Below, piece after piece: positions 3,556 through 36,241 of a stretch of 64,000 bases of DNA. This DNA comes from Vicinamibacterales bacterium (GTDB lineage: Bacteria; Acidobacteriota; Vicinamibacteria; Vicinamibacterales; UBA8438): positions 1,364,078-1,428,077 of the forward strand of contig OZ242323.1 of NCBI GenBank assembly GCA_965208165.1, read 5' to 3'. Each line of letters begins with the position of its first letter. Position 1 is the stretch's first letter. Position numbers and translations under genes: made by a program. The notes under the pieces are model-generated. The model did no database searches, was not told the origin of the DNA, and saw only the letters and a program-made list of their open reading frames with translations.

Positions 3556-3996
3556 CTATCCCGGCTGCGGCGGCGTGTGGACGATCTCGTACTTGATGCC
3601 CTCGGGGTCCTTGAAGAAGAGCGCGTAGTAGCCCGGCGGGACGTACTCGGGGAACTCGCGCGGCGGGATCACGATCGTGGCTCCGATCTCCTTCAGCTCG
3701 AGATGCAGCCGATCGACCTCGGCGCGCGACTCCGCCCTGAACGCGAGGTGATGCAGCGCGCCGGGCCTGCGGCGGTTGACGGCATCGCCCCGGAACGCGC
3801 TCCTCGGCGAGTTGATGGCGAAGCCCAGCCGCGGATGCAGGTACTCGACGACGTGCAGCTCGTGATCGTCCAGCACGGCGCTGTTCCTGCTCTCGAGATC
3901 GAAGCCGAGGAGCGGAAGCAGCTTGTCGTAGAAGGGCACCGCGACGCTCATGTCCTTCACGGTGATCTCGATGTGGTCGATCATCGGCTCCATCAC
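3556..3996 (-). CDS. VOC (glyoxalase/bleomycin-resistance/dioxygenase) family protein
   Basis: MIDHIEITVKDMSVAVPFYDKLLPLLGF...; size and pattern fit the VOC fold. Confidence 0.8.
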   Translation of the reverse strand: MMEPMIDHIEITVKDMSVAVPFYDKLLPLLGFDLESRNSAVLDDHELHVVEYLHPRLGFAINSPRSAFRGDAVNRRRPGALHHLAFRAESRAEVDRLHLELKEIGATIVIPPREFPEYVPPGYYALFFKDPEGIKYEIVHTPPQPG

Positions 3997-4023
3997 GCCA
4001 TCCCCTTCCTCGACTCGGTGGCT

Positions 4024-4416
4024 TCACGCCGGAGACTCGACATCGAGACCCGCCGCGACGGCGGCGGCGCGGAGCCGGAGGTCGTAGGTCACCAGGGCTT
4101 CGAGTCCGTCCAGCGACAGCGCGGTGGCGAGGTGAACGGCATCGAGGCTGCGCAGGGGGGCCGGTCCCAGTGCAGCGGCGTCATGCAGGATCGCTTCGTC
4201 CACGGCGACCAGGGCGATTCCCTCCAGGATCTGCTCCGCCCGGCGCGGCGCAGCCCGCGAGCGGCCGTGCGTGCGGCGCAGCGCCCGGAGCACCTCGACG
4301 CGGACGAGACCGCTGGCGACGCGGTCCTCATGGTCGGCGAGGAACCGGCGGAGTGCTTCCGACTCGGGCTCCGGTACGACGAGCTTGACGATGGCGGAGG
4401 AGTCGAGGTAGACCAC
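4024..4416 (-). CDS. vapC: PIN-domain toxin VapC (second copy)
   Basis: MVYLDSSAIVKLVVPEPESEAL...LDAVHLATAL is a classic VapC. Confidence 0.8.
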   Translation of the reverse strand: MVYLDSSAIVKLVVPEPESEALRRFLADHEDRVASGLVRVEVLRALRRTHGRSRAAPRRAEQILEGIALVAVDEAILHDAAALGPAPLRSLDAVHLATALSLDGLEALVTYDLRLRAAAVAAGLDVESPA

Positions 4417-9734: not shown

Positions 9735-10088
9735 CACCCGCGGCTATTCCGGGGGGCGTCCGAAGCGGCGCGCCCGGCCCGTAGCCGGCGTGCCCGAGGG
9801 CGGCCGCGGGTCGGCATTCGCAAGGTCGACGACCCCGTCGTCACCCCGGGCGACCTCGTCATGGCAGCGCTCTTGCCCTACCTCGCTGCGACGAGCGTCG
9901 GAGCTTCGCCGTAGTCGACGCCGTCGACAGCTCAGGAAGCCGCCGGGACTGCGATGGCGGGATTCGGGAGCCTGGGTCCGGCCGGCAATTCCAGGAGCAG
10001 TGCGTGAACCCGCGTTTCCACGCGCGGGAGGACCTCGCGGGGCTTCGTCCCGGCGCCGCCGCGTGATAACTTTGGCGGGCAGGTCTGG

Positions 10089-10379
10089 ATGAGCAACGAC
10101 ACGAAGTGGATCGTCGGTACCGCCGTGGTGCTGACCGGATTGTTGTCGGCGCAGATCGCCGGCGTGAACGCCCGCGTCGACGACCTGCGAGCCGACCTGA
10201 CGGCGCAGCTGACGACGCAGATCGGCGCCGTGAACGCCCGAATCGACCGTATCGAGACGCGCCTGGACGGGCTCGACGAACGGCTGCGCAACGTCGGGAT
10301 CGCGCTCGGCAAGGTCGACCAGAGACTCCTCACCATCGAGCGCGTCGTCCTTCCGGCGCCCGAGCAGCAGGGCGGCTAA
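10089..10379 (+). CDS. small membrane-anchored coiled-coil protein (paralog family 1/3)
   Basis: N-terminal TM helix (IVGTAVVLTGLL) then a heptad-like coiled coil with NARVDDLRADL / NARIDRIETRLDGLDERL. Paralogs at 23898..24089 and 33188..33493. Confidence 0.5.
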   Translation: MSNDTKWIVGTAVVLTGLLSAQIAGVNARVDDLRADLTAQLTTQIGAVNARIDRIETRLDGLDERLRNVGIALGKVDQRLLTIERVVLPAPEQQGG

Positions 10380-23765: not shown

Positions 23766-23897
23766 CGTCGGCGGATCACGTCAGGGCGGATTGCGGCTCC
23801 AAGAATAATCCGGCGACCCGCGGCTTGTCATCCGCTGCGGGCCGCGGGCCACCCCCCGGGGTTGCCGGTACCGGCTGCCTTCGTCTACGTTGTGAGT

Positions 23898-24089
23898 ATG
23901 GACGTATTGCTCGACGCCCTTCCCGTACTCGCGGTCGGCGGCTTCCTCTGGCGCCAGATTTCCAGCCTGGATCGACGCCTGGGATCCGTCGAGCGAGGGT
24001 TGGGCGATGTCGCGCAGCGGCTCGCGCGCCTCGAAGGCCGCATCGAGGGCTGGCAGGATCGCCAGCATCCGCCGGTGGCGTCCGCCTGA
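23898..24089 (+). CDS. small membrane-anchored coiled-coil protein (paralog family 2/3)
   Basis: MDVLLDALPVLAVGGFLWRQISSLDRRLGSVERGLGDVAQRLARLEGRIEGW: TM helix then coiled coil. It is the tail of a long shadow ORF. Confidence 0.45.
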   Translation: MDVLLDALPVLAVGGFLWRQISSLDRRLGSVERGLGDVAQRLARLEGRIEGWQDRQHPPVASA

Positions 24090-30488: not shown

Positions 30489-30872
30489 GTGGATCTCGTC
30501 AGCGTCGACCCGCGGGACCGGACACCGATCTACGTGCAGCTGGAGCGCGGGTTGCGTGCCGCGATCGCGGCGGGACGCCTGCAGCCGGGCGATCGACTGC
30601 CGACCGTCCGGCAGCTCGCGGTCGATCTGCGCGTCAACGCGAACACTGTCGCGCGCGTGTACGGCGAGCTCGAGCGGCGCGGCGTCCTCGAGACGCGGCG
30701 GGGCGTCGGCTCGTTCGTCAGCGCCACCCCGGCGCAGGCTCGCCCACCGCGGGAACACCATCGCCGGCTGAACGCGTTCGTCACGCGCCTGCTGGCGGAT
30801 GCCGACTCGGCCGGTTTCACCATCGACGAGGTGACCGCGGCGCTTCGCGCGCGTCAGCACGGAGGATCATGA
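30489..30872 (+). CDS. GntR-family transcriptional regulator (HTH only, short)
   Basis: LPTVRQLAVDLRVNANTVARVYGELERRGVLETRRGVGSFV is the GntR wHTH; GTG start; its stop overlaps the next gene's ATG. Confidence 0.8.
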   Translation: MDLVSVDPRDRTPIYVQLERGLRAAIAAGRLQPGDRLPTVRQLAVDLRVNANTVARVYGELERRGVLETRRGVGSFVSATPAQARPPREHHRRLNAFVTRLLADADSAGFTIDEVTAALRARQHGGS

Positions 30873-31817
30873 TGGCCCACACAATCTTCGGAGAGCGTCC
30901 GGAATCCCGCCTCCGCCACGTCCGGCGCATCAACGTCGTGTCGGTCGCAATCCTGCTGGCCTGGTGCGCGATCGCGTTGTGGGGATGGGAGACCACGGGC
31001 AACCCCGCGCCGCCGGTCGCGGCCGTGTCGATCGGACTCGTGCTGATGCAGTCGCCGCGGATCGCGCACCAGTGGGAACGGAGCGTCGTGCTGCGGCTCG
31101 GACGGTTCGTCGGCTTGCGGGGGCCCGGGCTGTTCTGGGTCGTGCCGTTCGTCGACCGCGTATCCGCGTGGGTCGACCAGCGCACGGTCACGACCACCTT
31201 CGCGGCCGAGCAGACCCTGACCTCGGACACCGTGCCGGTGAACGTCGACGCGGTGCTGTTCTGGATGGTGCACGACGTCGAAAAGGCGGCGCTCGAGGTC
31301 CAGGACTACGCGCAGGCGGTGAGCTGGGCGGCGCAGACCGCATTGCGCGACATCATCGGCCGGACCACCCTCGCCGATCTCCTGCGCGGCCGGGAACGCA
31401 TCGAGGCCGAGCTGCAGCAGCTCATCGATCAGCGCTCGAATCCGTGGGGGGTGACCGTGTCGTCCGTCGAGATGCGGGACGTCGTGATACCCGACGCGCT
31501 CCAGGACGCCATGTCGCGTGAAGCACAGGCGGCCCGCGAGAAGCAGGCGCGCGTCATATTGGGCGAAGCCGAGATGGCCATCGCCAGCTCGTTCCAGGAA
31601 GCCGCCAAGGTATCAGGAGAACCCGACCGCCCTGCATCTGCGGGCGATGAACATGCTCTACGAGGGCCTGAAGGAGAAGGGCGCGCTGATGCTGGTCCCG
31701 AGCAGCGCCGTCGAGTCGATGGGCATGGGCGGCCTGATGGGCGCCGCGGCGTTGCGACAGTCCGGCCTGGTGGGCGGGAGCGACACGCACGGCGCCGCCG
31801 GCCGTCCGCCGGAGTGA
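30869..31817 (+). pseudogene. SPFH/band-7 (stomatin/slipin-like) protein with frameshift near 31610
   Basis: N-terminal two thirds are in frame (TM helix plus SPFH core ...TTLADLLRGRERIEAELQQL...). The C-terminus YQENPTALHLRAMNMLYEGLKEKGALMLVP is in a different frame (track ORF 31518..31817). A 1-2 nt deletion at ..AAKV|YQE.. Confidence 0.7.
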
Positions 31818-31829
31818 AGGACGTCACGG

Positions 31830-31966
31830 GTCGGGTACCGCGACGAACGACGGTTCGGGGGCGGGCATGGACCGGGGAGATGCGACGCCAAGTCCCCGGT
31901 CGGGTACCGCGACGAACGACGGTTCGGGGGGCGGCATGGATCGGGAGATGCGACGCCAAGTCCCCG
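31830..31966. repeat. tandem repeat, ~69-bp unit x2, containing a CGGGGA...TCCCCG hairpin
   Basis: GTCGGGTACCGCGACGAACGACGGTTCGGGGGCGGGCATGGACCGGGGAGATGCGACGCCAAGTCCCCG occurs twice head-to-tail in the intergenic leader of the next gene. Confidence 0.7.
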
Positions 31967-31987
31967 GCGCTTGGAAGGAGTCGTCAC

Positions 31988-33130
31988 ATGAGCAGGATCA
32001 CCGGTTCGCATGCGGGGCTGTTGGCTACGTTGCTTCTCGTGACGCCCGGCGCCGGTGGAGCCGCGGCCGGGCAGGCCCCGCCACGGCCGGCCACGCCGTT
32101 CGAGCCGATTGCCGCGATCCTCCTTGCTTTCGAGCGGCACGCGATAGTCGCCGTCGGCGACCCGCACGACAACGAGCAGGCCCACGAGTTCCGGCTCTCG
32201 CTGATTCGCGACCCCCGGTTCGCGGCGGCCGTCGACGACATCGTGGTGGAATGGGGGAACGCCCACTATCAAGGCGTCATGGACCGCTTCGTCGACGGCG
32301 ACGACGTCCCCGACGCCGAGTTGCGCCAGGTCTGGCAGAACACTACGCATCCCGGACTGGGCAACGATCGGCCGATCACGGAAGCGTTCTTCCGGGCGGT
32401 GCGCGAGGTCAACGCGTCGCTCCCGCCTGAGCGCCGGCTCCGGGTCCTGCTCGGCGACCCCCCGATCGACTGGGATGCGGTGGAGAGCCGGGAGGACCAC
32501 CAGAAGTGGATAGAGCTGCGCGACACGCACGCCGCCGCGCTGATTCGACGCGAGGTGATCGAGAAGGGCCGGCGCGCTCTCGTCGTCTACGGCAGCATGC
32601 ACCTGCAGCGGCGGAATCTGTTCTCCAACTACGAGCTCGTCGAAGACCCGAACCTCCACACGCTCGTCCAGCAGCTCGAGCGCGAGGGCGGCGCGCGCGT
32701 GTTCACCGTCTGGCCGACGGCCTGGTCGACGGCGGGCGTCGACCTGCAGGAAGCGCAGCCTGACGTGGCGTCATGGCGGGCTCCCAGCCTTGCCCTGGTG
32801 CGCGGCACCGTGCTCGGGGCGGCGGACTTCAGCGCGTTCTACCCGGCCGAGGTGCCCCGCGCGACGATCCGGGACGGCCGGATCGTGACGAGCCGGGACG
32901 GCCGGATCGTGCCGGTTCCCCCTGAAGAGTGGCGCTCGTTGCCCGCCGAAGAGCAGTTCGACGCCGTGCTGTATCTCGGGCCTCCGTCCGACATGACGAG
33001 GTCGTTGCTCTCTCCTGCGCTATGTCGCGACCCGGCCTACATGGACATGCGCCGGGAACGCCTGTCGCTCGTGGAGATGCAGCGCAACCTGGAGCAGCTG
33101 CAGCGGTACTGCGCGCGGGTCGCGCCGTAG
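31988..33130 (+). CDS. hypothetical secreted protein (possibly ChaN/Tiki-like)
   Basis: Signal peptide; AIVAVGDPHDNEQAHEFRLSLIRD resembles the GExH-type motif of the ChaN/Tiki family. Tentative. Confidence 0.6.
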   Translation: MSRITGSHAGLLATLLLVTPGAGGAAAGQAPPRPATPFEPIAAILLAFERHAIVAVGDPHDNEQAHEFRLSLIRDPRFAAAVDDIVVEWGNAHYQGVMDRFVDGDDVPDAELRQVWQNTTHPGLGNDRPITEAFFRAVREVNASLPPERRLRVLLGDPPIDWDAVESREDHQKWIELRDTHAAALIRREVIEKGRRALVVYGSMHLQRRNLFSNYELVEDPNLHTLVQQLEREGGARVFTVWPTAWSTAGVDLQEAQPDVASWRAPSLALVRGTVLGAADFSAFYPAEVPRATIRDGRIVTSRDGRIVPVPPEEWRSLPAEEQFDAVLYLGPPSDMTRSLLSPALCRDPAYMDMRRERLSLVEMQRNLEQLQRYCARVAP

Positions 33131-33187: not shown

Positions 33188-33493
33188 CTACTGGGTGGGC
33201 TGATCGGACGCCACCGCGAGTTCGACCACGCGCAGACGATCGTCGATGCGGCGGATCTCGGTGCGGATTTCGGCGTGCTCGGCCCGAACCTCGGCGTTGA
33301 GCTCGCCGATGCGGGCGTTCGTGTCGCCGATGCGGGCGTTCACATCGGCGAATCGGGCGTTCATGTCGGCGCGGAGGTCATCGATCCGGCCGTTCGTCGA
33401 ACAGGAGCCGCCGATGATGGCGAGCACGACGGTGGCGCCGATGCCGATGACCGTCAGCCGGTCGGTCGTCGTCATGATCCGAGCCTGCCACAA
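33188..33493 (-). CDS. small membrane-anchored coiled-coil protein (paralog family 3/3)
   Basis: TM helix LTVIGIGATVVLAIIGG, then IDDLRADMNARFADVNARIGDTNARIGELNAEVRAEHAEIRTEIRRIDDRL. Starts 10 nt after the DUF3604 stop. Confidence 0.5.
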   Translation of the reverse strand: MWQARIMTTTDRLTVIGIGATVVLAIIGGSCSTNGRIDDLRADMNARFADVNARIGDTNARIGELNAEVRAEHAEIRTEIRRIDDRLRVVELAVASDQPTQ

Positions 33494-33503
33494 TTGAGTC
33501 GGG

Positions 33504-36134
33504 CTACCGCGACGGGTAGCCCCCCACCCAGACCGGGCTCGACCACGCCATCGCGTCGTTCACCTGCCGCACCCGCACGTAGTAGTAGTCGCCCTGCCGC
33601 GGGGTGTCCTCGTCGGTGTAGTCGAAGCTGACGTCGCGGGGGCCGTTGCGGATGAGGCGGCGCAGGGTGACGCGGTCGTCGGGGTAGTCGTCGATGGGCA
33701 TCGCGCGGGAGATGCCGCCGGCGTTGAGGGTCATCCGCACCCGGCTGGCGGGGATGACCGCGCGGGGCCGGTAGAAGGGCGGCGCCGAGCCGGTCTCGGT
33801 GGTCTCCTCGAGGTCGACGGTGACGGCCACGCTGGGGCGGATGCCCGACAGCGTGAGCCGCAGCGAGCTGCTGTCGCCGCGGGTGTGGGTGGCGAAGCGG
33901 GCGCCGTTGCCGGTCCGATCGAGGAACTGGGTGGTCGGGTTGACGAAGTCGGTGGCCGCGACCGCGACGACGTTGGCCCCCGTCACCCGCACCTCGCCTC
34001 GCCAGTGGCGCCAGCCCCTCGGGGCGTCGCCGGGATGGACGGGGGTCTCGCCGGACGAGAACGACAGCAGCCACTGCTCGGTGTCGGCGGGCCGGCCGCG
34101 GCCCACCGCGTACTCCTCGCTCCAGATGACCTCGTCGTTCTTCAGCAGTTCGACCGACCGGATGGGCGCGGTGCCGACGACCCGGCCCTCGACCTCGCGG
34201 ACGTCCGCGTACCCGGCCTCCTGCCCCATCGGGGTGCCGTTGACGGTGACGTCGAGGATGATGCGGTCGCCGGTCGTCGCATAGGTGCGCCGCTGCTTCA
34301 TGGCGTCGAAGATGGCGTCGCGCGAGCGCTCGGGGGCCATCACCGCGCCGAGGCCGCCGCGCTGGGCCAGCGAGTCGCGGTTGGGGGCGGAGTAGCCGGG
34401 GTGCGACAGGTGGTCGTCGGACGCGGCGATGAGCCCCACGCGGTGGCCGTGCGACAGGTACTGCCGGACGAACCAGTTGAAGGTGCCGTGCATCGACATC
34501 ATCTCGATGAGCGGCTCGAGCTGCGGGTCCGACTGGCGGTAGTCGCCGGGGTTGTGGGCGTGGGGGATGACGAGGACGTCGTCGGGGTCGTAGCGCGCGT
34601 GCAGGCCCTGGTAGAGCTCGGACAGGGTCGGGTACTCGACGGCGGACACCGGGGTGCGGTCGACGGTGTTCCGGTAGAGCACGTTGTGGTGACCGCCGAA
34701 CCGGGCCGGCCGCGTCCACTCCCAGCCGAGGTAGGGGATGAACCGGCCCGGGTCGTCGAACGCCTCGACCGCGCTCTTCGACAGCTCCCACTCGGCGTCG
34801 TCGAGCCAGACGTCGTGCTCGGAGTGGGTGACGAAGTCGAGCCGGGCGTCGTCGCGCGCGAAGGTCATGAAGAAGTCGATGGTGCCGATGCCCTCGGCGT
34901 AGCCCGAGTGGCCGTGGGTGTCGCCCCAGAAGATGCGCCGCTCGGGGTCCTCGACGACGAGGACCGGGTTGGCGTCGCCGGTGATCTCCCGGTCCTCGGA
35001 GCGGAGGGTGATCCAGTGCGGTCCCGGCTCGTCCAGCGTCAGCGGCACCACGGTGATGGCCTCCGTGCCGGCGGGGGTGGTGGCGCGCACGTCGCCGTCG
35101 ACCAGCACCTCGAAGGCGGGGATGTCGCCGGTGGCGCGGTTGAAGAACGCGTCCTCGGCCCGCACCGACAGCTCGAACGGCTCGCCCGGCTCGACGATGC
35201 TGGGGGCGAAGCCGTGCACGCCGGCCACCCGCGTGCCGCTGACGACGAAGGGCAGGATGGGCAGCGGCCGCCACTCGCCCGACGCGTCGAGGTCGACGTA
35301 GAGGGGCAGGGGCATGCGCGCGCTCGACGTGCCGGTCATGAGCAGCCCCGGGCCGCCGCCGCTGGTGTCGCCGTAGGTGATGGTGACCGTCTCGCCGGGG
35401 TCGAGCCGGCCCGAGGCGAGCCGGAAGACGAGGGCGGGCTCGGGCGCCCGGAACCCGCCGTGGGGGCCGCGCGCCATGTACACGTCGGGCTGGAACTCGG
35501 CGTCGCCGTCGCTGGTGGCGATGGTCACGTACCCCTCGCCGGCGGGGTCGTCGGTCTGGAAGGGGCCGTAGTTCATGTTGAAGTGCCGGGCCACCCAGAA
35601 GCCGCCGCCGGTCTCCACCGCGCGCGTTCCCGCCGTCCACGTCTGGCGGATGGTCTGGTGGCTGCGCGCCTCGAACGGGCCGAGCGACTCGGCCGCGAGC
35701 TCGCCGAGGGCGCCGGGCTCGTCGTGCAGGGTGAACTGGCGGACGAGCCGGTCGATGACGGCGCCCTGGTTCAGGGCCGCCTGGCCCCTCGGGGGCAGGG
35801 TCGCCTGCAGCCGCACGCGCGGGCCCTCCAGCCCGACCTCGCCGCCGCCGAGGGCGTAGGCGTCGACCCACTCGTCGAGGATGCGCGCGCGCTCGGCGAT
35901 GGTCGTCTCGTCGGTCGGGCTCGCCGCGACGTCGGCCTTGAGCTGCTCGACGGCGGTGCGGAGGGCCGGCGACAGGTAGTCGTCGCCGGCGCCGTCGCCG
36001 CCCGGCGCCCCGCAGGCGGCGGCCCAGCCGGCCAGCGCGAGGGCGGGAATCAAGCGAGGAATGGGGCGTGTCGTGGCTACGGATCGGCTGCGTGCTGCTC
36101 CGCGTCGTTCTCGGTCCGCTCTCCAGTCTGTCAT
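33504..36134 (-). CDS. DUF3604-domain protein (large secreted metal-dependent hydrolase-like), probable lipoprotein
   Basis: FWGDTHGHSGYAEG...THSEHD...PHAHNPGD blocks are typical of DUF3604; lipobox-like ALAGWAAAC. Start uncertain: ATT or TTG candidates lie nearer the signal. Confidence 0.7.
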   Translation of the reverse strand: MTDWRADRERRGAARSRSVATTRPIPRLIPALALAGWAAACGAPGGDGAGDDYLSPALRTAVEQLKADVAASPTDETTIAERARILDEWVDAYALGGGEVGLEGPRVRLQATLPPRGQAALNQGAVIDRLVRQFTLHDEPGALGELAAESLGPFEARSHQTIRQTWTAGTRAVETGGGFWVARHFNMNYGPFQTDDPAGEGYVTIATSDGDAEFQPDVYMARGPHGGFRAPEPALVFRLASGRLDPGETVTITYGDTSGGGPGLLMTGTSSARMPLPLYVDLDASGEWRPLPILPFVVSGTRVAGVHGFAPSIVEPGEPFELSVRAEDAFFNRATGDIPAFEVLVDGDVRATTPAGTEAITVVPLTLDEPGPHWITLRSEDREITGDANPVLVVEDPERRIFWGDTHGHSGYAEGIGTIDFFMTFARDDARLDFVTHSEHDVWLDDAEWELSKSAVEAFDDPGRFIPYLGWEWTRPARFGGHHNVLYRNTVDRTPVSAVEYPTLSELYQGLHARYDPDDVLVIPHAHNPGDYRQSDPQLEPLIEMMSMHGTFNWFVRQYLSHGHRVGLIAASDDHLSHPGYSAPNRDSLAQRGGLGAVMAPERSRDAIFDAMKQRRTYATTGDRIILDVTVNGTPMGQEAGYADVREVEGRVVGTAPIRSVELLKNDEVIWSEEYAVGRGRPADTEQWLLSFSSGETPVHPGDAPRGWRHWRGEVRVTGANVVAVAATDFVNPTTQFLDRTGNGARFATHTRGDSSSLRLTLSGIRPSVAVTVDLEETTETGSAPPFYRPRAVIPASRVRMTLNAGGISRAMPIDDYPDDRVTLRRLIRNGPRDVSFDYTDEDTPRQGDYYYVRVRQVNDAMAWSSPVWVGGYPSR

Positions 36135-36241
36135 CGACGTATCCAGCTTCCTCCGCCATGACGGCGCCACCAGAAGCGCCGCAGCCGGCATGTTCCGACG
36201 GCCCGGGAGCCCGCGGGGAGAGCTCCGCCCTCCGCCGCGTG

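Follow-up and report, generated by a model that had tools for sequence, protein, structure and literature searches.

This report concerns three small genes, designated A, B and C, in a 64,000-nucleotide (nt) stretch of the Vicinamibacterales contig OZ242323.1 (hereafter the window), and above all the family of coiled-coil proteins to which A and C belong. In a preliminary description of this DNA, the three products were given an N-terminal transmembrane (TM) anchor and a coiled-coil stalk. All three open reading frames (ORFs) were found where that description had placed them, only the start of C being moved to 33475. The genes are the following:

10089..10379, + strand: gene A, 96 amino acids (aa); Cys-less hydrophobic anchor and a distal module called M1 ("A-type"), the canonical member
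23898..24089, + strand: gene B, 63 aa; short hydrophobic N-terminus, then a short coiled coil
33188..33475, - strand: gene C, 95 aa; lipoprotein-type member with a distal module called M2

As the window has a G+C content of 71% and long shadow ORFs run across all three genes, coding status was tested directly. Longer ORFs in other frames overlap A, B and C alike, as expected of chance or shadow ORFs in a G+C-rich genome, and the GC content at the third codon position is weaker in B. When GC contents were computed for codon positions 1/2/3, values of 0.70/0.42/0.91 were obtained for A, 0.67/0.47/0.90 for C and 0.80/0.48/0.80 for B, compared with about 0.7/0.5/0.95 in neighbouring genes; the pattern was best in the proposed frames, and the shadow ORFs were less gene-like. 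Hundreds of homologues exist beyond this genome (389 clusters for A, 105 for C and 13 for B), and their conservation tracks the protein frame. Codon-wise comparison with homologous loci gave ratios of nonsynonymous to synonymous substitution rates (dN/dS) of 0.34-0.62 for A, 0.30-0.46 for B and 0.22-0.40 for C, that is, below 1 in every comparison. Furthermore, insertions and deletions comprise whole codons and whole helical turns, and the homologues of B sit in genomic contexts that differ among themselves and are not echoes of one contig. It is therefore exceedingly improbable that the three ORFs are not genes, and for A and C this explanation is already refuted. A, B and C are all real, conserved genes, and the doubt previously raised about them because of the shadow ORFs is resolved.

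The start of C was judged from the starts of its close homologues. The ATG at 33475 (MTTTDR), not the TTG at 33493, is the likely start codon, since all close homologues begin there; one of them, P0121 (95 aa), is 100% identical to C, and an exact look-up of this protein gave no contig on record. Scanning the window with Rfam and for tRNAs gave no hits.

By sequence comparison, A and C are homologous and are paralogues. BLASTP aligned the two with an E-value of 9e-8 and a common motif, N-A-R-I-D-D-L-R-A-D. A hidden Markov model (HMM) built from 120 homologues of A and run against the 880 translated segments of the window matched C at E 1e-13, A itself being scored at E 1.4e-53. When the family profiles of A and C were compared by hhalign, a probability of 98.4% was obtained (E 5.7e-15). 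Both proteins can be divided into an anchor, a stalk and a distal module. In the following list of parts, R-h-x-x-h-E stands for Arg(g)-h(a)-x-x-h(d)-Glu(e), a motif of parallel trimers (PMC3653964).

10089..10163, + strand: N-terminal anchor of A, MSNDTKW followed by IVGTAVVLTGLLSAQIAG, without Cys (alignment and flank charges)
10164..10262, + strand: variable stalk of A, VNARVDDLRAD / LTAQLTTQ / IGAVNARIDRIETR (Tandem Repeats Finder and motif scan)
10263..10355, + strand: distal module M1 of A, LDGLDERLRNVGIALGKVDQRLLTIERVVLP, about 4.5 canonical heptads (alignment and motif counts)
10356..10379, + strand: Pro-rich tail of A (APEQQGG) and stop codon, poorly conserved, no terminal Lys
33401..33475, - strand: lipoprotein signal peptide of C, lipobox I-G-G-S-C25, mature start C-S-T-N
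33303..33368, - strand: 21-nt tandem repeat in C, 3.1 copies (Tandem Repeats Finder), encoding the heptads NARFADV / NARIGDT / NARIGEL
33212..33286, - strand: distal module M2 of C, RAEHAEIRTEIRRIDDRLRVVELAV, with one R-h-x-x-h-E motif, RLRVVE (alignment and motif scan)

Because its hydrophobic segment ends in an invariant CSTN lipobox, C is a lipoprotein and is not anchored by a TM helix; the TM anchor ascribed to it before was wrong, the lipobox having been missed. All 29 aligned relatives share the residues C25, S26, T27 and N28. A PROSITE PS51257-like lipobox pattern is matched by C and by 46 of 50 C-type sequences, compared with 1 of 120 A-type and none of 13 B-type sequences. A Ser at position +2 would mean sorting to the outer membrane under the E. 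coli rule, which may not apply in Acidobacteriota. The AlphaFold model of C consists of one helix (residues 3-91; predicted local distance difference test score, pLDDT, 86), and a Foldseek comparison of this model with the Protein Data Bank (PDB) gave zero matches, as expected of a lone helix.

In the A-type anchor, D4, G10 and G17 are invariant in the family alignment and the MSNDTKW segment is nearly so. The charges that flank the anchor match those of the lipoprotein type. These features point to an uncleaved signal-anchor, probably with its N-terminus inside. A different reading would make the A-type proteins soluble periplasmic or secreted coiled coils, released by a cleavable Sec signal peptide, so that only the lipoprotein versions would be tethered. 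The hydrophobic core of A spans about 13 residues and is followed by the polar segment SAQIAG, in which positions -1 and -3 are occupied by small residues (IAG|V), and its n-, h- and c-regions are laid out as in the true signal peptide of C; the first of these points weighs directly against a retained anchor. However, the N-terminus of A is conserved beyond what is usual for signal peptides, the uncharged span measures 20-33 residues across the A family, glycines spaced 7 apart keep the helical register through the anchor, and in the AlphaFold model a single helix continues through the N-terminal segment. Cleavage and release are thus considered unlikely, if worth weighing, and the uncleaved anchor is retained as the preferred reading for A.

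The AlphaFold model of A is likewise one helix (residues 3-87, pLDDT 85), with the pLDDT falling to 51 in the tail; as modelled, about 62 helix residues (about 9 nm) would extend beyond the membrane segment. The stalk of A contains a 12-nt tandem duplication at 10197-10220, identified by Tandem Repeats Finder, which gives the four-residue stutter LTAQ/LTTQ, and one R-h-x-x-h-E motif, RIDRIE. The C-terminal module M1 is nearly invariant in the family, where it has the form RLDGFDERLRNVEIAFGKVDQRLLTIERVVLP; the invariant or nearly invariant columns are R65, L66, R67, V69, E70, R79-T82, E84, R85, L88 and P89. In the M1 of A, RLLTIE conforms to the R-h-x-x-h-E motif and the usual RLRNVE reads RLRNVG. 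The residue concerned, codon 70 (10296-10298), is Gly in the window and Glu in 87 of 120 relatives as well as in P0002, a protein 99% identical to A. For the Pro-rich tail, PEP-CTERM, GlyGly-CTERM and sortase signals were considered and rejected, as there is neither a C-terminal TM segment nor an LPXTG motif.

The modular nature of the family became apparent when the retrieved sequences of at most 170 aa were typed by anchor and by C-terminal module. The Cys-less helix anchor was combined with modules M1/M2/M3/M4 in 117/7/1/6 sequences, and the lipobox anchor in 6/30/16/20. Both anchors therefore pair with all four modules: P0199, for instance, joins a lipobox to M1, and P0171 and P0172 carry M2 behind an A-type anchor. 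Since the mature part of a lipoprotein is exported, these modules should be extracytoplasmic when they follow the Cys-less anchor, too, and the flank charges, alike in A-type and C-type proteins, agree with a common compartment.

Stalk length was expressed as the distance from DTKW to RLRNVE above its minimum and was determined for 157 distinct A-type proteins. The offsets observed were 0, (3), 4, 7, 8, 11, 14, 15, 18, 19, 21, 22, 25, 26, 28, 29, 32, 33, 35, 36, 39, 40, 43, 44, 47, 48, 62, 77 and 80; offsets of 1, 2, 5, 6, 9, 10, 12, 13, 16, 17, 20, 23, 24, 27, 30 and 31 were never seen among the 157 proteins. The best period was 3.63-3.65 residues, which corresponds to one helical turn, with a resultant length R of 0.75; none of 5000 random offset sets reached the observed periodicity. 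This quantization is explained by the gain and loss of units of 7, 11 and 4 residues. As the permitted lengths preserve the phase of the helix, the anchor and the tip keep their angular register, as would be the case for one continuous rod.

Repeat gain and loss is visible in the DNA of the window itself, in the 12-nt duplication of A and in the 21-nt repeat of C. Relatives of C differ by whole heptads: the syntenic orthologue at locus L088 has 88 aa, C has 95 aa and P0123 has 102 aa. The L088 orthologue is 88% identical to C at the DNA level and contains one heptad fewer; P0123 is 91% identical to C and contains one additional NARIGDT.

The position of B is different. The preliminary description had counted it as a third paralogue sharing motifs with the other two; this holds for A and C, and not for B, which lacks the DDLRAD/NARI units, gives weak profile matches and has a reversed predicted topology. 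Alignment showed a conserved motif particular to the B family, RLARLEGRIEGWQDR, and the coiled coil of B carries RLGSVE, RLARLE and LEGRIEGWQDR. Over the 15 residues beyond its hydrophobic segment, the net charge is positive (3.7 K/R vs 2.4 D/E), whereas the same flank is net negative in the A and C types. From these flank charges and the positive-inside rule, the B helix is predicted to face the cytoplasm, and probably does so. B has neither a NARIDDLRAD-type unit nor any of the modules M1-M4, and its predicted topology is opposite to that of the family.

It is possible, if doubtful, that B nevertheless represents a true minimal member of the family, made of an anchor and a coiled coil resembling a distal module, with no repeats between them. 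The profile matches between A and B are reciprocal: the A-family HMM finds B at E 0.019 and the B-family HMM finds A at E 2e-5 among the same 880 segments, A being its sole other match in the window. In addition, hhalign of B against the A family gave 88.5% (E 2.7e-6) over the TM and coiled-coil region only, BLASTP aligned residues 20-46 of B to M1 of A with 44% identity, R-h-x-x-h-E motifs are present in B, B shares lineage and contigs with the A-type family, and a -10 box lies close to its start as in A-type genes. However, TM and coiled-coil segments are prone to spurious profile matches, the LEGRIEGWQDR motif of B is missing from A and C, the pairwise comparison of B with C gave no match, and the reversed flank charges imply an opposite orientation. 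B is accordingly treated as a separate small family of membrane-associated coiled coils, at most remotely related to A, and is not counted with A and C. About 250-330 nt after the B homologue, a 74-aa ORF without Pfam hits is conserved at L083 (4512-4736), L084 (4431-4655) and L085 (677-901).

The A-type was scanned for in one genome per GTDB species, which gave 225 confirmed loci, 77 of which were kept. These 77 loci come from 41 metagenome-assembled genomes (MAGs), 39 of them labelled Vicinamibacterales, Vicinamibacteria or Acidobacteria; the distribution of the family is almost entirely Vicinamibacterales. One of the two exceptions is a contig labelled Dehalococcoidia (L050; CBDBNA010000001.1, 56,598 nt), which bears an A-type gene and equals in length the contig with P0383, a member of the B cluster; both families are otherwise confined to Vicinamibacterales, and the contig is probably mis-binned or part of a transferred element. 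The 77 loci hold 118 family genes, and the number per genome, which the preliminary description had proposed to check, amounts to several, with tandem arrays of up to six. Same-strand arrays contain six A-type paralogues at L014 (2298-4850), five at L024 (3624-6340) and four at L022 (3947-7183), the last consisting of three adjacent copies and one about 1.5 kb upstream. Within arrays, the termini of the paralogues are nearly identical and the number of stalk repeats differs; each copy has its own conserved upstream sequence.

With the C-family profile, 1491 clusters were found at E<=1e-3 among 1.84 billion representatives. Many of them show a CSTN lipobox or an N-terminal helix followed by NxR[IF]DD heptads, so that this type of repeat is broader than the A-type module. 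When ten diverse relatives were scanned with the Pfam and NCBIfam models, no curated family covered the architecture; the above-threshold hits of UPF0184 and HSBP1 on relatives were coiled-coil cross-matches and were discarded. The earlier suggestion of an unrecognized, largely lineage-specific family of envelope coiled coils has thus been borne out.

Several observations bear on the oligomeric state. A-type proteins average 3.35 R-h-x-x-h-E motifs, whereas their shuffled counterparts average 0.06, a more than 50-fold excess; the C and B types have about one. The family M1 module has two copies, and the 7-residue stalk unit ARMDRIE is the motif itself. The five best PDB hits of the A profile include reovirus sigma-1, coronavirus HR1, P22 gp26 and SadA; four of the five are proteins that we take to be trimeric coiled coils. 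Like the stalks of the trimeric fibres (reovirus sigma-1, P22 gp26 and trimeric autotransporter adhesins such as SadA), the proteins described here combine heptads and hendecads in a long, probably parallel coiled coil; the fibres, however, are large multi-domain surface or viral proteins, and the likeness is one of periodicity and composition, not of family. A point against trimers is found in the core of M1, where Leu occupies the a positions and Val/Ile the d positions, a distribution that according to the Harbury rules could favour tetramers. As judged from their sequences, the helices of A and C probably form parallel homo-oligomers, most likely trimers as in Braun's lipoprotein (Lpp).

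Lpp is also the best comparison for the family as a whole, as had been proposed at the outset. When the C-family profile was run against all PDB sequences, the top hit was Lpp (E 2.7e-5), and the alignment begins exactly at the acylated Cys (CSSNAKIDQLSSDV…LNAKVDQL vs CSTNaRIDDLRAD…mNaRfDDL). An hhalign comparison of the C family with E. coli Lpp gave 96% (E 4.7e-9); the mature part of the Lpp sequence used agreed with the aligned PDB chain. The two kinds of protein (for Lpp, PF04728 and PRK15396) are alike in being small (78 vs 95 aa), in having a signal peptide with a lipobox, in the start of the mature part (C-S-S/T-N-A-K/R-I-D-Q/D-L in Lpp/C), in forming one long heptad helix, probably a parallel trimer, and in being encoded by stand-alone genes. 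They differ in that the A/C family is found in Acidobacteriota, is multi-copy and variable in length, has no C-terminal Lys, and possesses conserved distal modules as well as an anchor variant without Cys (A).

Certain results weigh against a relationship with Lpp. The curated thresholds were missed: with PRK15396, C scored 19.1 bits and A 15.9 bits vs 108, and Pfam LPP (PF04728) gave no hit even at E<=10. C ends in …SDQPTQ and A in …PEQQGG, so that both are without the terminal Lys of Lpp and its defining cross-link; Lys is likewise missing from the end of every aligned A-type or C-type relative, and the last residue shows no conservation. Moreover, the resemblance of the coiled coils may be convergent. 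Below threshold, the NCBIfam Lpp models nevertheless ranked first for C and near the top for two further relatives of the lipoprotein type. With the Lpp/OprI alanine-zipper lipoproteins (NF040598), the A/C family has in common lipoproteins with a short coiled coil of trimeric type; C (14.2 bits) and the lipoprotein-type relatives (14-23 bits) remain below the 43-bit cut-off, and the core of the A/C stalk is made of Ile/Leu/Met/Val, not of an Ala zipper. As the curated models failed and the Lys is missing, the A and C proteins are not members of Lpp.

Taken together, it is on balance probable that A and C are versions of one modular family of exported, membrane-tethered coiled-coil rods with a non-covalent role in the envelope. 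The N-terminal element would be either the lipidated Cys of a signal peptide (C) or a Cys-less helix kept with its N-terminus inside and its C-terminus outside (A), which would place A in the inner membrane and, by analogy with Lpp, make C lipid-anchored. It would be followed by a continuous α-helical stalk built of 7-, 11- and 4-residue units, the number of which would change by repeat gain and loss, then by the conserved distal module and a short Pro-rich tail. As parallel homo-oligomers, most likely trimers, these proteins would form rigid rods reaching about 9-20 nm into the periplasm and holding the distal module at a set distance from the anchoring membrane. Such rods would probably act as struts, spacers or tethers of the envelope, in the manner of Lpp but without the cross-link of Lys to peptidoglycan. 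The topology of A, the oligomeric state, the localization and the function as a strut are what we infer here; struts or spacers are the simplest reading because the length of the rod, counted in helical turns, is the sole property that varies freely.

The presence of several paralogue lengths in one genome, up to six per array, is a poor fit to a single "ruler" and tells against this role; coexisting lengths may leave room for surface variation. In Mycoplasma, the Vlp/Vsa lipoproteins form multigene, often tandem families with a conserved N-terminal anchor, in which repeat copy number sets the length, and the A/C family resembles them in these respects. One could therefore picture a size-variable, surface- or host-facing family, whose stalk length would be varied for interactions with hosts, phages or predators. 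The arrays of paralogues that differ mainly in repeat number, the close relatives separated by whole heptads (88/95/102 aa), the fairly high dN/dS of A (about 0.6) and the occurrence of one A-type subfamily on a conjugative element (see below) would suit such a role, and the record titles and bin names suggest, as we read them, host-associated marine sources. On the other hand, no switching mechanism was apparent: all copies are preceded by promoter-like boxes of their own, and neither invertible nor homopolymeric tracts were noticed. Constraint on the termini is strong, and there is no indication of passage across the outer membrane. In addition, the Mycoplasma proteins have no sequence relationship to the family, are not rods constrained in helical phase, and are expressed in a phase-variable manner, of which the A/C family shows no sign. 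A role in surface variation is accordingly regarded as distinctly improbable, and the envelope rod is kept as the working interpretation.

A wider proposal, which is speculative and quite unlikely in its full extent, is that the Vicinamibacterales set the spacing of their envelope with a combinatorial kit of non-covalent rods that draws on two anchors, an inner-membrane helix or a lipid, on at least four tips and on turn-tuned stalks, several lengths being co-expressed from tandem leaderless genes. In E. coli, the length of Lpp sets the width of the periplasm, and altering Lpp by two or three heptads shifts this width by 3-4 nm (PMC5736177). If the proposal were true, the kit would be a natural and evolvable counterpart of the engineered Lpp+14/Lpp+21 "periplasmic ruler", in a phylum thought to be without Lpp, and it could also vary the cell surface towards a host. 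Lpp has been reported only from four gammaproteobacterial orders (bioRxiv 10.1101/2021.05.31.446380); it is the textbook envelope tether, and how envelope spacing is set and stabilized in most other diderms is only partly known. What is new here is a lineage-specific expansion of an Lpp-like kind, with interchangeable anchors and tips and a phase-quantized length. The family offers a tractable natural series for the effects of rod length and tip identity in the envelope, and several hundred "hypothetical proteins" gain a name, an architecture, corrected starts and anchor types. The lineage is poorly studied and is known here only from MAGs, and the practical value will be modest until localization and oligomeric state are measured.

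Other families were compared and set aside. The preliminary description had evoked XhlA, and membrane proteins of the phage-lysis type (holin, spanin, haemolysin-like) were considered along with it. Weak Pfam XhlA hits were indeed obtained (E 5.6e-4, 20.5 bits), XhlA figures among the precomputed Pfam hits on some homologues, and there is a superficial likeness between the pair of anchor types and the i- and o-spanins. However, 20.5 bits is below the 34.7-bit cut-off, and XhlA (PF10779) is prophage-encoded and has its membrane segment at the C-terminus, whereas the A-type anchor is N-terminal. PHROGs gave weak matches only, all of unknown function and none to an annotated lysis family, C had no match in 50,697 phage records (tblastn), and no phage context was seen in the 77 loci. 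A relationship to XhlA or to spanins is thus very improbable.

XhlA and DUF7310 (PF23991), which share with A a short coiled coil and one membrane segment, are its best raw Pfam hits. DUF7310 is described only as a coiled-coil region without assigned function, and was rejected with 21.6 bits for A, 15.2 for C and 13.2 for B vs a gathering score of 40 bits. The sll1863 family stress protein (NF052504) was also discarded (A 18.1 and C 13.9 bits vs a 35-bit cut-off), as was an FtsL/FtsB-type protein (FtsL_COG5462, E 0.14, for C only), the A/C family being multi-copy and without conserved neighbours. PADLOC gave one negligible hit, PbeC, for A (E 0.005, 13.7 bits), and a tblastn search of A against 72,556 plasmids gave no match.

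The following features lie next to the three genes:

10064..10072, + strand: extended -10-like box TGATAACTT, 16 nt upstream of the start codon of A (read from the sequence)
23886..23891, + strand: -10-like hexamer TACGTT, 6 nt upstream of the ATG of B (read from the sequence)
33504..36191, - strand: DUF3604 gene, directly upstream of C with a 28-nt gap (ORF, context only)

The -10-like box was recognized only by comparison of paralogues, a scan for consensus sigma-70 promoters and terminators around A having found nothing. In 94 family genes (L006-L082), the pattern TGnTAnnnT falls 39 times in the bin from -10 to -6 nt and about 16 more times at 12-21 nt, and is almost missing elsewhere in the 160 nt upstream; copies within tandem arrays carry the box too. 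The homologues of B (L083-L085) have TGATAAGCT 11 nt upstream. Orthologues of C have a -10-like box 7 nt before the start codon (TGGTAGGCT in L088), which is degenerate in the copy of the window, TGGCAGGCT. From its sequence, a box so near the start suggests leaderless or near-leaderless transcripts, and the family genes are probably stand-alone and abundant. The copy that resembles A most closely in DNA sequence, 250 nt of upstream sequence included, lies at L025 (4001-4110) and is frameshifted after 25 residues (MSNDTKWIAATAVALAGLLSAQIAASTPASTTCEPT*), either as a pseudogene or through an assembly error.

An all-against-all BLASTP comparison of the ORFs revealed no conserved neighbour in the 77 loci, so that guilt by association gives no functional clue. 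The commonest neighbour, in 14 of 77 loci, is an NHL/beta-propeller-like secreted protein (for instance L007 2609-3760, - strand), at variable distance and orientation; its frequency probably reflects the abundance of that family and not a functional link. As to C, it had been described as operonic with the DUF3604 gene. The adjacency is preserved in the close, syntenic orthologues L088 and L090 (88% DNA identity), in which the gene upstream is matched by Pfam DUF3604; beyond these it does not hold, a 60%-identical homologue (L005) lying in another context, and the orthologues carry a -10-like box of their own.

A subfamily of the A-type (MSDTRT.VLTIVGTGVGLAVLL…) was met at L049 (3956-4264, +), L050 (3956-4231, +) and L042 (about 3956-4252, +). 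Its gene is embedded in a cluster for conjugative type IV secretion, where it lies between VirB8 and TrbL/VirB6 but on the opposite strand, with TraG/VirD4, TrbI/VirB10 and CagX/VirB9 nearby (flanks L049 399-5250 and L042 6351-7664). As the element of about 8 kb occurs twice in one genome (L042, L049) and also in other MAGs, a mobile element carries this family member, the position of which recalls that of small entry-exclusion genes.

Finally, a 753-aa ORF of the window (30869-33130, + strand) looks, from its translation only, like two genes read through: a part resembling SPFH/band-7 proteins and a low-complexity stretch rich in Arg, Gly and Pro are followed by a signal-like Met start, MSRITGSHAGLLATLLLV….

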